From Escherichia coli (lineage in GTDB: Bacteria > Pseudomonadota > Gammaproteobacteria > Enterobacterales > Enterobacteriaceae), in assembly GCF_044647545.1 (NCBI RefSeq), contig NZ_CP172818.1: DNA of 64,000 nucleotides; one strand, 5' to 3'. The translations under genes and the position numbers were made by a program. The stretch's first letter is position 1; every line of letters starts with the position of its first letter. Shown in pieces: positions 1,474 through 53,834 of the stretch. The notes beneath the pieces are model-generated. The model saw only the letters and a list, made by a program, of their open reading frames with translations, had not been told where the DNA came from and made no database searches.

Positions 1474-1571
1474 GCCTGATGCGCTACGCTTATCAGGCCT
1501 ACATCGCTCCTGCAATGTATTGATTTTGCAAGATTTTGTGGGTCGGATAAGGCGTTCACGCCACATCTGGC
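1474..1571. repeat. REP (repetitive extragenic palindromic) elements downstream of opgH
   Basis: Imperfect palindromes of the gcctgatgcg...cttatcaggc and ggataaggcgttcacgcc type, typical REP/BIME units. Confidence 0.7.
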
Positions 1572-10667: not shown

Positions 10668-10772
10668 TAATCTCTATGCTCCGGCTGAAGGGATGTTTTT
10701 GCCGGACACAAAGGATAAGCGGAAACGTTTTCCTTTGCACGAAAAATAAAGGGCGCGAATGCGCCCTCGTGA

Positions 10773-15811: not shown

Positions 15812-17434
<1,623 letters not shown>

Positions 17435-17473
17435 CAATGCATTCCGGCCTGCAGTGCAGGCCGGAGATAATCT

Positions 17474-17890
17474 TCAGATCGAAATCTTTTTACTGCCGCG
17501 ATGGGTTGTTGAGGTCTGACCGTTCGCTCCATATAGCGTCGGTTCCTGATGCGGTTTCAACATTTCCAGCGCCTGTTGATTGCGCTCAATCTGTCCTTCC
17601 AGTAACCAGCCGTTATGTTGATTCATTTGGCGTAGTTGCTGCGTTTTCACAGTAATTTCCTGCCAGCGTTGACTAATATCAACGCTATTTGCTGAATTGG
17701 GTTCTTTCCTGCGTAACTGTTCGAGGTAATCCAGCGTCGCCAGCAGTGAGCTTTTTTGTTCTGTAATCCATTGCAACTGGCTGCCGTTGATCTGCCCCAT
17801 AGAGAGATGTTGCTGTTCTTGATCCATTACCGTTTTGAGATCGTTAAGCACAGCGGACATCTGGTCGAGGATCTCTGCAAGACGCGTCAT
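17474..17890 (-). CDS. flgN: Flagellar export chaperone FlgN
   Basis: 138-aa ORF, 4 nt downstream of flgM; recognised as FlgN. Confidence 0.95.
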   Translation of the reverse strand: MTRLAEILDQMSAVLNDLKTVMDQEQQHLSMGQINGSQLQWITEQKSSLLATLDYLEQLRRKEPNSANSVDISQRWQEITVKTQQLRQMNQHNGWLLEGQIERNQQALEMLKPHQEPTLYGANGQTSTTHRGSKKISI

Positions 17891-17894
17891 ACGA

Positions 17895-18188
17895 TCAGTT
17901 ACTCTGCAAGTCTTGCTGCGCTTCGTTGATCAGCGCATCGGCAATTTTGCCGGTGTCCATTTTTAGTTCACCGTTACGAATCGCCAGTTTTAACGCTTCG
18001 ACACGTTCAAGATTGATATCACTGCTGCCGGGTTGCATCAGTTTTGCTTGCGCGTCGCTTAACGTCACACTAGTGCTGGTGGAGGCGGTTGTTTTTGCCG
18101 CCCGGGTGTTCGTTACCGGCGCGTCAGTGGTTTCGCGCGGTTGAACGGTGCTTACGGGCTTCAGAGGCGAAGTGCGATCAATACTCAT
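17895..18188 (-). CDS. flgM: Anti-sigma-28 factor FlgM
   Basis: 97-aa ORF recognised as FlgM. Confidence 0.95.
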
Positions 18189-18231
18189 GGTTTATTCCTC
18201 ATTGAGGGCGCTTTTATCATGTGTTGCTTAT

Positions 18232-18258
18232 TTATCGGCAAGGGATGGGTAATCTTTA
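18232..18258 (-). promoter_or_regulatory. Sigma-28 (FliA) class 3 promoter for flgMN, inside the flgA coding region
   Basis: Minus strand reads TAAAGATT-N11-GCCGATAA, close to the sigma-28 consensus TAAAGTTT-N11-GCCGATAA, about 45 nt upstream of flgM. Confidence 0.8.
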
Positions 18259-18263
18259 ACAGC

Positions 18264-18923
18264 TTACAGGTTTATAAGAATATTCCCATCTGCATCAACA
18301 ACGCCGCTGACCACCTGTCCCGATACCATGCGCACCCGCGCATTCTGTGCGACGGCAGCATTGTTCAGCGCCTGACCTTCTGCGTTGGCGCTAAACCCAT
18401 CACCGCTGGCGATCACGTTGACGCGTTGTCCCGCTTTTACCCGCCATGCCTGGCGAAACTGGGTTAACTGGATAGGTTGATCGGGTGATAGATCGCGCAG
18501 GCTAACGGCATCAACAAGTTGATTGATATCCAGTACCGTACGCGGTGGCAAGGTGTCCAGCCGTCCGCGTTTCAGTTTGACATTGCCAGCTTCCAGCTTT
18601 CCTCCCCGCACAATGGGCATTGCGGCAACCACATAATTTCCTGTGGCCTGCACATTAACCTGTAAATATCGTTTGTCGTTACCGCAGCGTGCCAACACAT
18701 TCACATTGCCCCACAGGCGGGAATTATTGCTCATCGAAAGCAATGGCTGCTCGCACGGCGGCAGTAGACTGGGCGCTGTACGAATAGAAACACGAACCTC
18801 ATCACTTACCCCCGCGAGCTGGGCGCTAAAAAAGGTGTGCAATTGCGATGTGAGATTGCTCGCCGTACTTAACGGACTGAACAGTATCGCGATGATCGTC
18901 ACGCTACGTTTTATTGTCAGCAT
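18264..18923 (-). CDS. flgA: Flagellar P-ring assembly chaperone FlgA
   Basis: 219-aa ORF with signal peptide; recognised as FlgA. Confidence 0.95.
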   Translation of the reverse strand: MLTIKRSVTIIAILFSPLSTASNLTSQLHTFFSAQLAGVSDEVRVSIRTAPSLLPPCEQPLLSMSNNSRLWGNVNVLARCGNDKRYLQVNVQATGNYVVAAMPIVRGGKLEAGNVKLKRGRLDTLPPRTVLDINQLVDAVSLRDLSPDQPIQLTQFRQAWRVKAGQRVNVIASGDGFSANAEGQALNNAAVAQNARVRMVSGQVVSGVVDADGNILINL

Positions 18924-19077
18924 TTTCGCCCCCAGCCATTTCTACAACGTGAATTGTACCTGTCCGCAATGACCATCAACGGCATAAATAGCGACCCATT
19001 TTGCGTTTATTCCGCCGATAACGCGCGCGTAAAGGCATTTAAGCTGATGGCAGAATTTTGATACCTGCGGAGGAGAT
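18924..19077. promoter_or_regulatory. Divergent flgA / flgB class 2 flagellar promoter region (FlhDC-dependent)
   Basis: 154-bp divergent intergenic region between flgA and flgB; assignment from established flagellar regulon architecture, FlhDC boxes not individually resolved. Confidence 0.6.
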
Positions 19078-19494
19078 ATGCTCGATAAGCTCGACGCCGC
19101 CTTACGTTTTCAACAAGAGGCGCTCAATCTGCGCGCCCAGCGTCAGGAAGTGCTGGCAGCAAACATCGCCAATGCCGATACCCCTGGTTATCAGGCTCGC
19201 GATATCGATTTTGCCAGTGAACTTAAAAAAGTCATGCAACGTGGACGGGATGCAACCAGTGTGGTTGCTCTGACGATGACCTCAACGCAACACATTCCGG
19301 CGCAGGCGCTGACGCCTCCTACCGCAGAACTGCAATACCGTATTCCGGACCAGCCTTCGCTTGACGGTAATACCGTCGATATGGATCGCGAACGCACCCA
19401 GTTTGCCGATAACAGCCTGCAATACCAGATGAGCCTTAGCGCGTTGAGCGGGCAAATCAAAGGCATGATGAACGTTTTACAGAGCGGAAATTAA
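19078..19494 (+). CDS. flgB: Flagellar basal-body rod protein FlgB
   Basis: 138 aa; ATG 19078 after GGAGGAG RBS. Confidence 0.96.
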
Positions 19495-19497
19495 CGG

Positions 19498-19902
19498 ATG
19501 GCACTGCTGAATATTTTTGATATCGCCGGTTCGGCGTTAACTGCCCAGTCCCAGCGCCTGAACGTGGCGGCCAGTAATCTGGCGAATGCTGATAGCTTGA
19601 CCGGTCCCGATGGACAGCCATATCGGGCAAAACAGGTGGTATTTCAGGTTAACGCTGCGCCAGGTGCTGCGACAGGCGGCGTAAAGGTGGCCGATGTTAT
19701 AGAAAGTCAGGCCCCGGACAAACTGGTTTATGAACCGGGTAATCCGCTGGCGGATGCAAAGGGCTACGTGAAAATGCCAAACGTTGATGTCGTCGGAGAG
19801 ATGGTTAACACCATGTCGGCGTCACGCAGCTATCAGGCCAATGTTGAAGTGCTCAACACGGTGAAAAGCATGATGCTGAAAACCCTTACGCTCGGTCAAT
19901 AA
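19498..19902 (+). CDS. flgC: Flagellar basal-body rod protein FlgC
   Basis: 134 aa, 3 nt after flgB. Confidence 0.96.
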
Positions 19903-19913
19903 AGGAGAAAGCT

Positions 19914-20609
19914 ATGTCCATTGCGGTAACCACCACCGATCCGACAAATACCGGCGTAAGCACCACCAGTAGTAGTTCGCTCACGGGCAGCAACGCCGCA
20001 GATTTACAAAGCAGTTTTCTGACTTTGTTGGTGGCGCAGCTGAAAAACCAGGACCCGACCAATCCAATGGAAAACAACGAGCTGACGTCGCAATTGGCTC
20101 AAATCAGCACGGTAAGCGGGATTGAAAAACTCAATACCATGCTCGGATCTATTTCCGGACAGATTGATAACAGCCAGTCGTTACAGGCCAGTAACCTGAT
20201 CGGTCACGGCGTGATGATCCCCGGTACCACAGTTCTTGCGGGAACCGGCAGTGATGAAGGGGCTGTGACCACGACCACGCCGTTTGGTGTTGAGCTGCAA
20301 CAGGCGGCAGACAAAGTGACGGCCACCATCACCGATAAAAACGGTGCAGTTGTCCGTACCATTGATATCGGTGAACTGACTGCCGGAGTCCACAGTTTCA
20401 CCTGGGACGGTACGTTGACTGACGGCAGCACTGCGCCGAACGGTTCTTACAATGTAGCGATTAGCGCCAGTAGCGGTGGTACACAACTGGTTGCCCAGCC
20501 GCTGCAGTTTGCTCTGGTGCAGGGTGTGATCCGCGGCAACAACGGTAATACGCTGGATCTCGGCACTTACGGCACCACCACCCTCGACGAAGTACGGCAG
20601 ATAATTTAA
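19914..20609 (+). CDS. flgD: Flagellar hook capping/assembly protein FlgD
   Basis: 231 aa, Ser/Thr-rich N-terminus. Confidence 0.95.
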   Translation: MSIAVTTTDPTNTGVSTTSSSSLTGSNAADLQSSFLTLLVAQLKNQDPTNPMENNELTSQLAQISTVSGIEKLNTMLGSISGQIDNSQSLQASNLIGHGVMIPGTTVLAGTGSDEGAVTTTTPFGVELQQAADKVTATITDKNGAVVRTIDIGELTAGVHSFTWDGTLTDGSTAPNGSYNVAISASSGGTQLVAQPLQFALVQGVIRGNNGNTLDLGTYGTTTLDEVRQII

Positions 20610-20633
20610 GCCTTCACATTTCAGGAGTCAGTC

Positions 20634-21839
20634 ATGGCCTTTTCTCAAGCGGTTAGCGGATTAAACGCTGCCGCCACCAACCTCGATGTTATTGGCAACA
20701 ATATCGCCAACTCCGCCACCTACGGCTTTAAATCAGGCACGGCCTCTTTTGCCGATATGTTTGCCGGTTCGAAAGTGGGACTGGGGGTAAAAGTTGCCGG
20801 TATCACTCAGGACTTTACCGATGGCACGACCACCAACACCGGGCGAGGTCTGGACGTTGCTATCAGCCAGAACGGTTTTTTCCGTCTGGTAGACAGCAAC
20901 GGTTCGGTGTTCTACAGCCGTAACGGACAATTTAAGCTGGATGAAAACCGTAACCTGGTGAATATGCAAGGTTTACAGCTGACGGGTTACCCGGCAACCG
21001 GTACGCCGCCGACTATTCAGCAAGGGGCGAATCCGACCAATATTTCGATTCCGAATACCCTGATGGCAGCGAAAACTACTACCACGGCGTCGATGCAGAT
21101 CAACCTGAATTCCAGTGATCCGCTTCCCTCTGTTAAAGCATTCGATGCCAGCAATGCGGATAGCTATAACAAAAAAGGTTCGGTGACTGTTTTCGATAGT
21201 CAGGGTAATGCTCATGATATGAGCGTTTATTTTGTGAAGACCGGGGATAACAACTGGGATGTTTACACCCTGGATAGCAGTGATCCAACAGGCACAGCTA
21301 ACCCTGCAACGACGCTGGTGTTTAATGCCAATGGCGTTCTGACCTCAGGTCCAACAAAGGATATTACCACCGGCGCAATTAACGGCGCAGATCCCGCCAC
21401 GTTTAGCCTGAGCTTCCTCAATTCTATGCAGCAAAATACCGGCGCTAACAACATCGTGGCAACCACCCAGAATGGCTACAAACCGGGTGATCTGGTGAGT
21501 TATCAAATCAATGATGACGGTACGGTTGTCGGCAACTATTCCAACGAACAAACCCAACTGCTGGGGCAGATTGTACTGGCGAACTTTGCCAACAACGAAG
21601 GTCTGGCATCTGAAGGTGACAACGTCTGGTCTGCGACGCAATCTTCTGGCGTGGCGCTGTTGGGGACTGCCGGGACGGGCAACTTTGGTACGCTGACCAA
21701 CGGTGCGCTGGAAGCGTCCAACGTCGATCTCAGTAAAGAACTGGTCAATATGATCGTTGCCCAGCGTAACTATCAGTCTAACGCCCAGACCATCAAAACC
21801 CAGGACCAGATCCTCAACACGCTGGTTAACTTACGCTAA
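20634..21839 (+). CDS. flgE: Flagellar hook protein FlgE
   Basis: 401 aa; conserved axial-protein N-terminal (SGLNAA..IANS.T.G) and C-terminal (AQRNYQSNAQTIKTQDQIL) motifs. Confidence 0.95.
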   Translation: MAFSQAVSGLNAAATNLDVIGNNIANSATYGFKSGTASFADMFAGSKVGLGVKVAGITQDFTDGTTTNTGRGLDVAISQNGFFRLVDSNGSVFYSRNGQFKLDENRNLVNMQGLQLTGYPATGTPPTIQQGANPTNISIPNTLMAAKTTTTASMQINLNSSDPLPSVKAFDASNADSYNKKGSVTVFDSQGNAHDMSVYFVKTGDNNWDVYTLDSSDPTGTANPATTLVFNANGVLTSGPTKDITTGAINGADPATFSLSFLNSMQQNTGANNIVATTQNGYKPGDLVSYQINDDGTVVGNYSNEQTQLLGQIVLANFANNEGLASEGDNVWSATQSSGVALLGTAGTGNFGTLTNGALEASNVDLSKELVNMIVAQRNYQSNAQTIKTQDQILNTLVNLR

Positions 21840-21858
21840 TCGCTGACGGGATAGCTCA

Positions 21859-22614
21859 ATGGATCACGCAATTTATACCGCGATGGGAGCAGCCAGCCAG
21901 ACGCTGAATCAACAGGCGGTAACCGCCAGTAATCTGGCCAATGCCTCTACGCCCGGTTTTCGCGCGCAGTTAAACGCCTTGCGCGCAGTGCCGGTGGAAG
22001 GGCTTTCACTGCCCACGCGCACGCTGGTAACGGCGTCAACGCCGGGTGCAGACATGACGCCCGGCAAGATGGATTACACCTCGCGCCCGCTGGACGTTGC
22101 GTTGCAGCAGGATGGCTGGCTGGCCGTGCAGACCGATGACGGTAGCGAAGGGTATACGCGTAATGGCAGCATTCAGGTTGATCCCACCGGGCAACTGACA
22201 ATTCAGGGGCATCCGGTGATAGGCGAGGCGGGGCCAATTGCTGTGCCGGAAGGGGCGGAAATCACTATTGCTGCCGATGGAACAATCTCGGCGCTGAATC
22301 CGGGCGATCCGGCAAATACGGTTGCGCCAGTGGGGCGTCTGAAACTGGTGAAAGCCACGGGCAGCGAAGTGCAGCGCGGTGACGACGGCATTTTTCGTTT
22401 AAGCGCGGAAAGCCAGGCCACGCGTGGGCCGGTACTGCAGGCAGATCCAACCTTGCGTGTGATGTCGGGAGTTCTGGAAGGCAGTAACGTCAATGCCGTT
22501 GCGGCAATGAGCGACATGATTGCCAGCGCGCGGCGTTTTGAAATGCAGATGAAGGTGATCAGCAGCGTCGATGATAACGCAGGCCGTGCCAACCAACTGC
22601 TGTCAATGAGTTAA
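21859..22614 (+). CDS. flgF: Flagellar proximal rod protein FlgF
   Basis: 251 aa. Confidence 0.95.
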   Translation: MDHAIYTAMGAASQTLNQQAVTASNLANASTPGFRAQLNALRAVPVEGLSLPTRTLVTASTPGADMTPGKMDYTSRPLDVALQQDGWLAVQTDDGSEGYTRNGSIQVDPTGQLTIQGHPVIGEAGPIAVPEGAEITIAADGTISALNPGDPANTVAPVGRLKLVKATGSEVQRGDDGIFRLSAESQATRGPVLQADPTLRVMSGVLEGSNVNAVAAMSDMIASARRFEMQMKVISSVDDNAGRANQLLSMS

Positions 22615-22732
22615 TTAAACGATTGATGACATTGCAATAAAAGCGCGCGGACTATTCTCTCGCCCATTTTGGGAGAGGTTAGGGTGAGGGGAAATTCGCA
22701 CCGTCGCGTGCTTCTGCTCTGCTTGTCACTAA

Positions 22733-23533
<801 letters not shown>

Positions 23534-23585
23534 GGCATAACCGGTGGCAGATTCACCGGTTTACTGATTTTTGAAGATGATAGCC

Positions 23586-24284
23586 ATGCAAAAAAATGCT
23601 GCGCATACTTATGCCATTTCCAGCTTGTTGGTGCTTTCACTAACCGGCTGCGCCTGGATACCCTCCACGCCGCTGGTACAGGGGGCGACCAGTGCACAAC
23701 CGGTTCCCGGTCCGACGCCCGTCGCCAACGGTTCTATTTTCCAGTCTGCTCAGCCGATTAACTATGGCTATCAACCGCTGTTTGAAGATCGTCGACCACG
23801 CAATATTGGCGATACGCTGACCATCGTGTTGCAGGAGAACGTCAGCGCCAGCAAAAGCTCCTCTGCGAATGCCAGCCGTGACGGTAAATCTAATTTTGGC
23901 TTTGATACTGTGCCGCGCTATTTGCAGGGGCTGTTTGGTAACGCTCGTGCCGATGTCGAAGCCTCCGGTGGTAACACGTTCAACGGAAAAGGCGGGGCCA
24001 ATGCCAGCAATACCTTTAGCGGCACGTTGACGGTGACGGTTGACCAGGTACTGGTCAACGGCAACCTGCATGTGGTGGGTGAAAAACAGATCGCCATTAA
24101 TCAGGGTACCGAATTTATTCGCTTCTCTGGTGTAGTTAATCCACGCACTATCAGCGGCAGCAATACCGTACCGTCTACTCAGGTGGCGGATGCGCGCATT
24201 GAATACGTAGGCAATGGCTACATTAACGAAGCGCAAAATATGGGCTGGTTGCAACGTTTCTTCCTTAATCTGTCGCCAATGTAA
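23586..24284 (+). CDS. flgH: Flagellar L-ring lipoprotein FlgH
   Basis: Track ORF 23571.. trimmed to ATG 23586 ([22 protein letters not shown], lipobox); 232 aa. Confidence 0.93.
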
Positions 24285-24295
24285 GTGAGGCTGTG

Positions 24296-25393
24296 GTGAT
24301 TAAATTTCTCTCTGCATTAATTCTTCTACTGGTTACGACGGCGGTTCAGGCTGAGCGTATTCGCGATCTCACCAGTGTTCAGGGGGTAAGGCAAAACTCA
24401 CTGATTGGCTATGGCCTGGTGGTGGGGCTTGATGGTACAGGTGACCAGACAACTCAGACGCCGTTTACCACACAAACGCTTAATAACATGCTCTCACAGC
24501 TGGGAATTACCGTTCCGACGGGCACCAATATGCAGCTAAAAAACGTCGCTGCGGTAATGGTGACGGCGTCACTTCCACCGTTTGGACGCCAGGGGCAAAC
24601 CATTGACGTGGTGGTTTCTTCCATGGGAAATGCCAAAAGTCTGCGTGGCGGTACGTTATTGATGACACCGCTTAAGGGCGTTGACAGTCAGGTGTATGCG
24701 CTGGCACAGGGCAATATTCTGGTTGGCGGCGCAGGGGCCTCCGCTGGCGGTAGCAGTGTTCAGGTGAACCAACTGAACGGTGGACGGATCACCAATGGTG
24801 CGGTTATTGAACGTGAATTGCCCAGCCAGTTTGGCGTCGGGAATGCCCTTAATTTGCAACTTAACGACGAAGATTTCAGTATGGCGCAGCAAATCGCTGA
24901 CACCATCAACCGCGTGCGTGGATATGGCAGCGCCACCGCGTTAGATGCGCGGACTATTCAGGTGCGCGTACCGAGTGGCAACAGTTCCCAGGTCCGTTTC
25001 CTTGCCGATATCCAGAATATGCAGGTTAATGTTACCCCGCAGGACGCTAAAGTAGTGATTAACTCGCGCACTGGTTCGGTGGTGATGAATCGCGAAGTGA
25101 CCCTCGACAGCTGCGCGGTAGCGCAGGGGAATCTCTCAGTAACAGTTAATCGTCAGGCCAATGTCAGCCAGCCAGATACACCGTTTGGTGGCGGGCAGAC
25201 CGTGGTAACGCCACAAACGCAGATCGATTTACGCCAGAGCGGCGGTTCGCTGCAAAGCGTACGTTCCAGCGCCAGCCTCAATAACGTGGTGCGTGCGCTC
25301 AATGCGCTGGGCGCTACGCCGATGGATCTGATGTCCATACTGCAATCAATGCAAAGTGCGGGATGTCTGCGGGCAAAACTGGAAATCATCTGA
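24296..25393 (+). CDS. flgI: Flagellar P-ring protein FlgI
   Basis: GTG start at 24296 ([19 protein letters not shown] signal peptide); 365 aa; stop overlaps flgJ start (ATGA). Confidence 0.92.
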
Positions 25394-26334
25394 TGATCAG
25401 CGACAGCAAACTACTGGCAAGTGCGGCCTGGGATGCACAATCGCTCAACGAACTTAAGGCGAAAGCGGGCGAAGATCCGGCGGCAAATATCCGTCCGGTG
25501 GCCCGCCAGGTGGAAGGGATGTTCGTGCAGATGATGTTGAAAAGCATGCGCGACGCTTTACCAAAAGATGGCCTGTTCAGCAGCGAGCACACTCGCCTGT
25601 ATACCAGTATGTATGACCAGCAGATTGCCCAACAGATGACGGCGGGCAAAGGTCTGGGGCTGGCAGAGATGATGGTTAAACAGATGACGCCAGAACAACC
25701 ATTGCCAGAGGAGTCCACGCCAGCAGCACCGATGAAATTCCCGCTCGAAACCGTGGTGCGTTATCAAAATCAGACGCTTTCGCAGCTGGTGCAAAAGGCC
25801 GTACCACGTAACTACGATGATTCGCTGCCGGGTGACAGTAAAGCATTCCTCGCGCAACTCTCGTTGCCCGCCCAACTGGCAAGCCAGCAAAGCGGTGTGC
25901 CACATCATTTGATCCTCGCTCAGGCGGCGCTGGAATCTGGCTGGGGACAACGGCAAATCCGCCGTGAAAACGGCGAGCCGAGCTATAACCTGTTTGGCGT
26001 CAAAGCCTCTGGCAACTGGAAAGGGCCAGTCACTGAAATCACCACGACTGAATATGAAAATGGCGAAGCGAAGAAAGTAAAAGCGAAGTTTCGGGTCTAC
26101 AGCTCGTATCTGGAAGCATTGTCGGATTACGTTGGGCTGTTAACGCGTAACCCGCGCTACGCCGCCGTGACGACCGCCGCGAGTGCGGAGCAGGGGGCGC
26201 AGGCCCTACAGGACGCGGGCTATGCCACCGATCCTCACTATGCCCGCAAACTCACCAGCATGATTCAGCAGATGAAATCGATAAGCGACAAGGTGAGCAA
26301 AACCTACAGCATGAACATTGATAATCTGTTCTGA
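25393..26334 (+). CDS. flgJ: Flagellar rod assembly protein / peptidoglycan hydrolase FlgJ
   Basis: Track ORF 25363.. trimmed to ATG 25393 ([14 protein letters not shown]); 313 aa; C-terminal glucosaminidase domain. Confidence 0.94.
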   Translation: MISDSKLLASAAWDAQSLNELKAKAGEDPAANIRPVARQVEGMFVQMMLKSMRDALPKDGLFSSEHTRLYTSMYDQQIAQQMTAGKGLGLAEMMVKQMTPEQPLPEESTPAAPMKFPLETVVRYQNQTLSQLVQKAVPRNYDDSLPGDSKAFLAQLSLPAQLASQQSGVPHHLILAQAALESGWGQRQIRRENGEPSYNLFGVKASGNWKGPVTEITTTEYENGEAKKVKAKFRVYSSYLEALSDYVGLLTRNPRYAAVTTAASAEQGAQALQDAGYATDPHYARKLTSMIQQMKSISDKVSKTYSMNIDNLF

Positions 26335-26339
26335 ATAAC

Positions 26340-26366
26340 TCAAGTCCGGCGGGTCGCTGCCGATAA
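26340..26366 (+). promoter_or_regulatory. Sigma-28 class 3 promoter for flgKL
   Basis: TCAAGTCC-N11-GCCGATAA immediately after flgJ stop, about 34 nt upstream of flgK. Confidence 0.8.
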
Positions 26367-26399
26367 TACTCTGTAATTGAAGGCTTATAAGGAACCTCC

Positions 26400-42013: not shown

Positions 42014-42823
42014 ATGTTCTTAATTAACGGTCATAAGCAGGAATCGCTGGCAGTAAGCGATCGGGCAACGCAGTTTGGTGATGGTTGTTTTACCACCGCC
42101 AGAGTTATCGACGGTAAAGTCAGTTTGTTATCGGCGCATATCCAGCGACTACAGGATGCTTGTCAGCGGTTGATGATTTCCTGTGACTTCTGGCCTCAGC
42201 TTGAACTAGAGATGAAAACGCTGGCAGCAGAACAGCAAAATGGTGTGCTGAAAGTGGTGATCAGTCGCGGTAGTGGCGGGCGAGGATACAGCACATTGAA
42301 CAGCGGACCGGCAACGCGGATTCTCTCCGTTACGGTTTATCCCGCACATTACGACCGTTTGCGTAACGAGGGGATGACGTTGGCGCTAAGCCCGGTGCGG
42401 CTGGGGCGCAATCCTCATCTTGCAGGTATTAAACATCTTAATCGGCTTGAGCAAGTATTGATCCGCTCTCATCTTGAGCAGACAAACGCTGATGAGGCGC
42501 TGGTCCTTGACAGCGAAGGGTGGGTTACGGAATGCTGTGCGGCTAATTTGTTCTGGCGGAAGGGCAACGTAGTTTATACGCCGCGACTGGATCAGGCAGG
42601 TGTTAACGGCATTATGCGACAATTCTGTATCCGTTTACTGGCACAATCCTCTTATCAGCTTGTCGAAGTGCAAGCCTCGCTGGAGGAGGCGTTGCAGGCA
42701 GATGAGATGGTTATTTGTAATGCGTTAATGCCAGTGATGCCCGTACGTGCCTGTGGCGATGTCTCCTTTTCGTCAGCAACGTTATATGAATATTTAGCCC
42801 CACTTTGTGAGCGCCCGAATTAG
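42014..42823 (+). CDS. pabC: Aminodeoxychorismate lyase PabC
   Basis: 269 aa. Confidence 0.95.

Positions 42824-51993: not shown

Positions 51994-53834
<1,841 letters not shown>

Follow-up and report, generated by a model that had tools for sequence, protein, structure and literature searches.

The window, a stretch of 64,000 nucleotides (nt) from an Escherichia coli chromosome (NZ_CP172818.1, assembly GCF_044647545.1), is a chromosomal segment carrying the flg flagellar gene cluster. To establish the gene map, we combined the list of open reading frames (ORFs) with the PGAP annotation of a strain that is 100% identical to the window over positions 17400-19100. This stretch of about 1.7 kb around flgM has 100% identical counterparts in several complete E. 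coli chromosomes and was found in 5,425 of 5,426 complete E. coli genomes. The features discussed below are listed by window position.

end at 17434, plus strand: murJ, annotated upstream of flgN
17474..17890, minus strand: flgN (138 aa), export chaperone of FlgK and FlgL, cotranscribed with flgM (ORF list, PGAP, Pfam FlgN)
17895..18188, minus strand: flgM (97 aa), anti-sigma-28 factor, ATG at 18188 (ORF list, PGAP, Pfam FlgM)
18189..18263, minus strand: flgA-flgM intergenic spacer of 75 nt, containing the promoter and a 36-nt 5' UTR (ORF coordinates, PGAP)
18224, minus strand: inferred class 3 start of flgM (A), 36 nt before the ATG (Romilly 2020; same distance to the -10 element as in the Salmonella orthologue)
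18232..18258, minus strand: flgMN class 3 (sigma-28/FliA) promoter, PflgM (sequence, pattern search, weight matrix, conservation; published ChIP-seq and SELEX)
18264..18923, minus strand: flgA (219 aa), first gene of the class 2 flgAMN transcript, stop codon TAA at 18266..18264 (ORF list, PGAP, Pfam ChapFlgA/SAF)
19078-26334, plus strand: flgB to flgJ (ORF list, PGAP)
25393..26334, plus strand: flgJ, last gene of the class 2 flgB-J transcript, with read-through into flgKL, stop codon TGA at 26332-26334 (PGAP, Pfam)
between 26334 and the flgK ATG at 26400, plus strand: flgJ-flgK spacer of 65 nt, containing the flgKL promoter
26340..26366, plus strand: flgKL class 3 (sigma-28/FliA) promoter, PflgK, in the flgJ-flgK spacer (sequence, pattern search, weight matrix, conservation; published ChIP-seq and SELEX)
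26375, plus strand: predicted class 3 start of flgK (A), leaving about 25 nt of 5' UTR (from alignment with the Salmonella start)
26400-28043, plus strand: flgK, hook-filament junction protein (ORF list, PGAP, Pfam FlgK)
28055-29008, plus strand: flgL, hook-filament junction protein (ORF list, PGAP)
29008..29085, plus strand: flgL 3' UTR, equivalent of the FlgO small RNA (K-12 annotates the ncRNA flgO directly after flgL)
29050-29078, plus strand: intrinsic terminator ending the flgKL transcripts, a stem followed by a T-run (terminator scan)
29908-33081, minus strand: rne

Downstream of flgA, the minus strand reads ctg TAA gctgt TAAAGATT acccatccctt GCCGATAA ataagcaacacatgataaaagcgccctcaatgaggaataaacc ATG, where TAA is the flgA stop codon. 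The -35 element TAAAGATT occupies 18258..18251 and the -10 element GCCGATAA occupies 18239..18232, separated by a spacer of 11 nt (18250..18240). A pattern search against the consensus TAAAGTTT-N11-GCCGATAA revealed one mismatch in 16 positions, with an exact -10 element and the 11-nt spacing. These results confirmed the coordinates of the original prediction, made from the sequence alone, which had placed a near-consensus sigma-28 promoter at 18258..18232 of the minus strand, about 45 nt upstream of flgM; on the sense strand, we measured 44 nt from the last base of the -10 element to the flgM ATG. The same prediction had described this promoter as embedded inside the flgA coding sequence, which is wrong. 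The flgA stop codon lies at 18266..18264 and the -35 element begins 5 nt later; therefore, the whole 27-nt motif lies within the 75-nt intergenic spacer.

PflgM of E. coli K-12 MG1655 is found at the same locus and shares the 28-mer of the window except for one spacer base, the window having A for G at 18246. The spacer allele of the window is in the minority, 72 of 5,425 complete-genome records matching the 75-nt spacer at 99% identity or more. The flgA-flgM spacer itself was found in 5,425 of 5,426 complete E. coli genomes, and both promoter spacers in at least 5,424 of 5,426.

The second motif had been placed at 26340..26366, immediately after the flgJ stop codon, and indeed it starts 5 nt past the TGA at 26332-26334. 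Its -35 element TCAAGTCC (26340-26347) and its -10 element GCCGATAA (26359-26366) are separated by 11 nt, and the -10 element ends 33-34 nt before the flgK ATG at 26400 on the sense strand. The pattern search with the same consensus returned 3 mismatches in 16 positions, again with an exact -10 element and an 11-nt spacer. In every genus examined, the PflgK -35 element (TCAAGTCC here) departs more from consensus than its PflgM counterpart. The 28-mer of PflgK in MG1655 is identical to that of the window, with no difference of substance between the two.

The sigma-28 weight-matrix scan that had been suggested as a check was carried out with a 28-column matrix built from 23 FliA ChIP-seq sites with a FAT score above 4 (Fitzgerald et al. 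2014, PMC4183435), from which flgMN and flgKL were omitted. The flgM site reached 27.5-28.0 bits and ranked first of 127,946 positions, about 10 bits above the next site, while the flgK site reached 16.1-16.4 bits and ranked fourth in the window; the training sites span 9-29 bits. Chance maxima over 200 random windows averaged 14.6 bits and peaked at 19.4 bits. For the flgM site, the tail probability is 9.6e-12 per position and none of these 200 windows reached its score, so the flgM motif is far beyond chance by score alone. Conversely, the flgK motif is borderline by score alone, with 0.14-0.23 such sites expected per window, and its identification needs position, conservation and published binding data; a site of its strength is expected about 2e-4 times in the 100-nt zone upstream of a given gene. 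Because 16 bits falls within the chance maxima, we rejected the score alone as a test of the flgK site.

Two further sites in the window outscored the flgK site. The first (18.2 bits, 52741-52768, plus strand) lies in the last 60 nt of the thiK coding sequence, 41 nt before nagZ, and the second (17.9 bits, 42602-42629, minus strand) is antisense within pabC. MG1655 has an identical thiK site, which is nevertheless missing from the 52 FliA ChIP-seq peaks reported for that strain (PMC4183435). Neither site has ChIP-seq support, and both were rejected as new FliA promoters. A motif score is therefore no proof of function: the stronger thiK site has no reported binding, whereas the weaker flgK site is strongly bound, indicating that sigma-28 motif scores are unreliable when used alone.

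A third exact GCCGATAA was found at 19014-19021 on the plus strand, 57 nt upstream of the flgB ATG; it has a poor -35 element and scores below 11.5 bits. This sequence is probably the -10 element of flgBP2, a MarA-activated, sigma-28-dependent promoter that shares its -35 region with the divergent flgAP2 (NAR 2026, PMC12781870). Like PflgM and PflgK, flgAP2 and flgBP2 have GCCGATAA-like -10 elements and provide a further FliA route into the same operons. They differ by their weak -35 elements, by their occlusion by FlhDC, by the MarA requirement of flgBP2 and by scores below 11.5 bits, and they were not detected in ChIP-seq.

Conservation was assessed by scanning for FlgM in one genome per species, which yielded 80 loci from about 20 genera of Enterobacteriaceae; the comparison set of 79 consists of the 78 loci that retain flgA plus the window. 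A site of 19.9-28.2 bits lies upstream of flgM in all 79 loci. TAAAG and TGCCGAT are invariant and the spacer varies, giving 52 distinct 28-mers over the 79 loci, with a mean information of 1.79 bits for the -35 element, 0.88 for the spacer and 1.81 for the -10 element. In every one of the 79 loci the FlgA alignment extends to residue 219 with the stop codon directly after, and the gap between this stop codon and the motif is never negative (most often 6 nt, in 43 loci, or 5 nt, in 23; otherwise 26 nt, in 10 loci, or 114 nt, in 3). The distance from the site to the flgM ATG is 57-66 nt in nearly all loci outside Escherichia. Even with the 114-nt gap that follows flgA in Atlantibacter, the site remains 59 nt from the flgM ATG.

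For flgK, 20-kb contigs around FlgM from seven further genera were compared, making 8 genera overall. All 8 genera share CTCAAGT and TGCCGATA unchanged, with a variable spacer between them. The flgJ-flgK spacer of Buttiauxella has grown to 272 nt, and the site is still 40 nt from the flgK ATG. Since both sites keep their distance to the downstream gene in enlarged spacers, these alignments show that both motifs behave as elements selected together with that gene, and that both promoters travel with it across genera. The enlarged spacers of Buttiauxella gaviniae (flgJ-flgK, locus L088, 1651-1922) and Atlantibacter (flgA-flgM, loci L073-L075 and L085) are inserts of about 110-200 nt, each confined to a single genus. 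Atlantibacter also carries six lipid-related genes as a block between flgN and murJ.

The flgM 5' UTR of Escherichia (36 nt; window 18189-18224) is without about 16-17 nt that are found in most other genera, in which it measures about 50-59 nt. A consensus fold over 24 genera contains an invariant 4-bp CCUC/GAGG hairpin (CCUC-NAU-GAGG) over the flgM Shine-Dalgarno sequence, with no covariation among these 24 genera, and the E. coli UTR folds no better than shuffled sequences (z = -0.22). A structured or regulatory flgM 5' UTR was dropped on this basis, a 4-bp hairpin without covariation and a fold equal to shuffles being all that the candidate offered.

Published data place FliA on both sites. 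FliA ChIP-seq in motile MG1655 gave a flgMN peak with a FAT score of 48 on TAAAGATTACCCGTCCCTTGCCGATAAA, one spacer base away from the window sequence, and a flgKL peak with a FAT score of 47 on TCAAGTCCGGCGGGTCGCTGCCGATAAT, the same sequence as in the window; the flgKL site, like that of flgMN, was entered as intergenic (PMC4183435). Furthermore, SELEX with the RpoF holoenzyme returned a peak of 15.0 in the flgM/flgA spacer and of 27.2 in the flgJ/flgK spacer (Shimada et al. 2017, PMC5493296).

Transcription starts were mapped in Salmonella SL1344 by dRNA-seq (PMC3293720). The flgM start at 1213533 coincides with the primer-extension start of Gillen and Hughes 1991; it is annotated as sigma-28 and has a 52-nt UTR, a -10 element at -15..-8 and the flgA stop codon at 1213573 (PMC3293720). 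PflgM of SL1344 is placed 5 nt after the flgA stop codon, as in the window, and was also reported to lie at the same distance from flgM. The flgK start at 1221586, equally annotated as sigma-28, coincides with that of Kutsukake and Ide 1995, with a 24-nt UTR and a -10 element at -16..-9 (PMC3293720). These starts thus lie 8 nt (flgM) and 9 nt (flgK) downstream of the -10 element (PMC3293720). PflgK of the window is the orthologue of this Salmonella flgK promoter, for which primer extension and dRNA-seq both gave the start.

In E. coli, nucleotides +1 to +105 of flgM cover 23 codons (Romilly et al. 2020, PMC7549644), hence a 36-nt UTR and a start at window position 18224. With this start, GCCGATAA falls at -15..-8 and the distance from the motif centre is 20.5 nt, within the 18-22 nt given by the FliA promoter rule (bioRxiv 10.1101/188474). 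The predicted flgK start at 26375 lies 21.5 nt from the motif centre, also within 18-22 nt.

Comparison with mapped starts, which had been proposed as a check, with class 3 starts lying elsewhere as the refuting outcome, met a complication. The Salmonella sigma-28 starts agree with both motifs, but the E. coli lists of Kim 2012 (Table S1) and Cho 2014, from TSS-seq in MG1655, give a flgM 5' end at NC_000913.2 1129417 instead and leave the sigma-28 start unlisted. This coordinate corresponds to window position 18254, the G of TAAAG, giving a UTR of 66 nt and lying 30 nt upstream of the sigma-28 start. The 5' end at 18254 cannot come from the sigma-28 promoter, and Cho 2014 assigned it to sigma-70.

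An additional, weak sigma-70-type flgM promoter starting at 18254, with its -10 element around the flgA stop codon and its upstream half inside flgA, could account for this 5' end. Consistent with such a promoter, TAAGCT, of which the flgA stop codon is part, occupies -12..-7 counted from 18254 (in the region of window 18261-18268, minus strand). Moreover, the flgA stop codon is part of a perfect TATAAT (CTA TAA T) in 58 of the 79 related loci, and the last FlgA residue is encoded by the rare leucine codon CTA in 52 of them, compared with 7% among flgA leucine codons overall. We nevertheless consider this promoter unlikely. Both start-site tables come from one laboratory, share data and are supported here by only 14-21 reads, and the 5' end at 18254 could be a processing product of the flgAMN transcript. 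The E. coli hexamer TAAGCT is degenerate, inspection of the sequence revealed no good -35 hexamer, and a simple scan for the sigma-70 consensus around the flgA stop codon gave no match on the sense strand. In Salmonella, dRNA-seq gives the sigma-28 flgM start only, despite a perfect TATAAT (PMC3293720). The 79 loci are related by phylogeny, so their codon skew is not independent, and CTA and CTG alternate among close relatives. If real, this third promoter would explain both the 5' end at 18254 and the preference for CTA at the last FlgA residue, and could provide basal anti-sigma factor independently of FlhDC and FliA. It would add to the class 3 promoter and does not challenge it.

The control of flgM and flgKL from class 2 and class 3 promoters, another element of the original prediction, is established in E. 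coli by FliA ChIP-seq and by RT-PCR across flgJ-flgK (PMC4183435), and in Salmonella by the mapped starts (PMC3293720). In MG1655, overlapping flgAMN and flgMN operons are supported, and RNA-seq together with RT-PCR across flgJ-flgK shows that the flgB operon transcript extends through flgKL as well (PMC4183435). Overexpression of fliA in an flhD deletion strain restores the expression of flgM and flgK (PMC4183435). Deletion of fliA in MG1655 lowered flgM RNA from 451 to 318 and flgK RNA from 318 to 138, a modest drop that is not significant (PMC4183435); most transcripts under those conditions came from the class 2 promoters. In vitro, flgAP1 and flgBP1 are activated by FlhD4C2 (PMC12781870). 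A simple terminator scan of the sense strand found no terminator-like site either within 17400-19100 or in the flgJ-flgK interval, so that read-through into both class 3 operons is possible; on the plus strand it returned a single terminator, the one that follows flgL at 29050-29078.

Both sites have every sequence-level feature of a FliA promoter. Motif presence, placement relative to the ORFs, score, cross-genus conservation and terminator absence were computed here, and FliA occupancy, start sites, read-through and FliA dependence are taken from the literature. Taken together, we are highly confident that 18232..18258 and 26340..26366 are the canonical class 3 promoters PflgM and PflgK, read by the sigma-28 (FliA) RNA polymerase. 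Their mapping goes back to the 1990s and has since been confirmed again on a genome-wide scale; they are known, ordinary promoters, and there is nothing new about either.

Both sites fit into the standard flagellar hierarchy. Early in assembly, FlhDC and sigma-70 fire the class 2 promoters that diverge from the flgA-flgB region and, as no terminator stands in the way, this transcription passes from flgA into flgMN and from flgJ into flgKL. The FlgM produced by this early read-through holds FliA inactive until completion of the hook-basal body, when export of FlgM frees FliA. The FliA holoenzyme then binds TAAAGATT/GCCGATAA between flgA and flgM and TCAAGTCC/GCCGATAA between flgJ and flgK, and is expected to initiate some 8-9 nt past each -10 element, near 18224 and 26375 in this strain. 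The resulting short flgMN and flgKL(-FlgO) transcripts are independent of FlhDC. The flgMN transcript exerts negative feedback on FliA via FlgM, besides encoding the chaperone FlgN, and the class 3 transcripts supply junction proteins and chaperone for completion and repair of the filament.

The proposal that PflgM is embedded in flgA, with the same bases serving as codons and promoter (a 'duon'), is refuted for the core elements by the ORF coordinates. The -35 element is only 5 nt past the flgA stop codon, and DNA upstream of -38, a possible contact zone for the alpha subunit, is all that overlaps flgA, over its last ~8 codons. The same regulon offers a precedent in PmotA, a documented intragenic sigma-28 promoter within flhC that may be behind the original idea. 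PmotA and PflgM share the sigma factor and the regulon, and each is a class 3 promoter placed where an upstream class 1 or class 2 gene ends. However, the core elements of PmotA overlap FlhC codons (Ala177-Asp178) and constrain the protein, whereas the ORF coordinates place the core of PflgM (18258..18232) wholly after the flgA stop codon (18266..18264), without overlap between the -35 or -10 element and the codons of the upstream gene; PflgM therefore falls outside the intragenic 'duon' class. The constant FlgA C-terminus and stop position in 79/79 loci, where the motif never overlaps the coding sequence, argue against embedding as well. RefSeq has no annotated feature under the 75-nt spacer in the 12 E. 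coli records listed. Fitzgerald et al. 2014 also counted the site as intergenic, giving flgMN without the parentheses reserved for intragenic sites and motA as '(flhC)motAB-cheAW' (PMC4183435). Lying between genes, PflgM does not subject FlgA to a double constraint, coding and regulatory, of the kind that PmotA exerts within flhC.

It is also very improbable that one or both motifs are chance look-alikes and that flgMN and flgKL are expressed by class 2 read-through only: the 16 bits of the flgK site, the thiK and pabC sites, of equal or better score and with no reported FliA binding, and the small effect of the fliA deletion on flgM and flgK RNA (PMC4183435) would fit such a reading, but it is contradicted by the tail probability of the flgM site, by key bases that are invariant across genera while spacers vary and sites follow the downstream gene into expanded spacers, by ChIP-seq (PMC4183435) and SELEX (PMC5493296) peaks on both sites, by correctly spaced Salmonella starts (PMC3293720) and by the restoration of flgM and flgK expression upon fliA overexpression without flhD (PMC4183435).

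Besides PflgM and PflgK, several other segments of the window were noted. The flgF-flgG spacer (22615-22750) is a 136-nt gap, unusually long within the flgB operon, and its sequence is unrelated to the 171-nt spacer of K-12, which resembles REP-type palindromic repeats. By this comparison, the segment is a variable inserted repeat. A modest RpoF SELEX peak was reported in the flgF-flgG spacer of K-12 (Shimada 2017, PMC5493296).

Between flgL/FlgO and rne, positions 29222-29795 form about 570 nt of low-complexity, homopolymer-rich sequence that includes long A, T, C and G tracts. This segment aligns as a 'smeared' version of a GNAT-toxin/DUF1778-antitoxin cassette that is present at this position in close relatives and absent from K-12, and no intact ORF is left in it. 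Its middle is matched by none of the 5,426 complete E. coli genomes, the best coverage being 35% and limited to the flanks. It looks like a low-quality assembly patch or another sequence artefact, and not like biology.

The flgL 3' UTR is nearly identical in the window and in K-12, and FlgO has been described as sigma-28 dependent. FlgO (29008-29085) has no Rfam match, though annotated in K-12. Rfam matches at gathering score were obtained for the rne 5' UTR element (33106-33442, minus strand), the SraB sRNA (35303-35471, plus strand), the PyrC leader (10668-10717, minus strand) and the ES036 sRNA (1495-1537, minus strand), all four of which are expected for this region of the E. coli chromosome.
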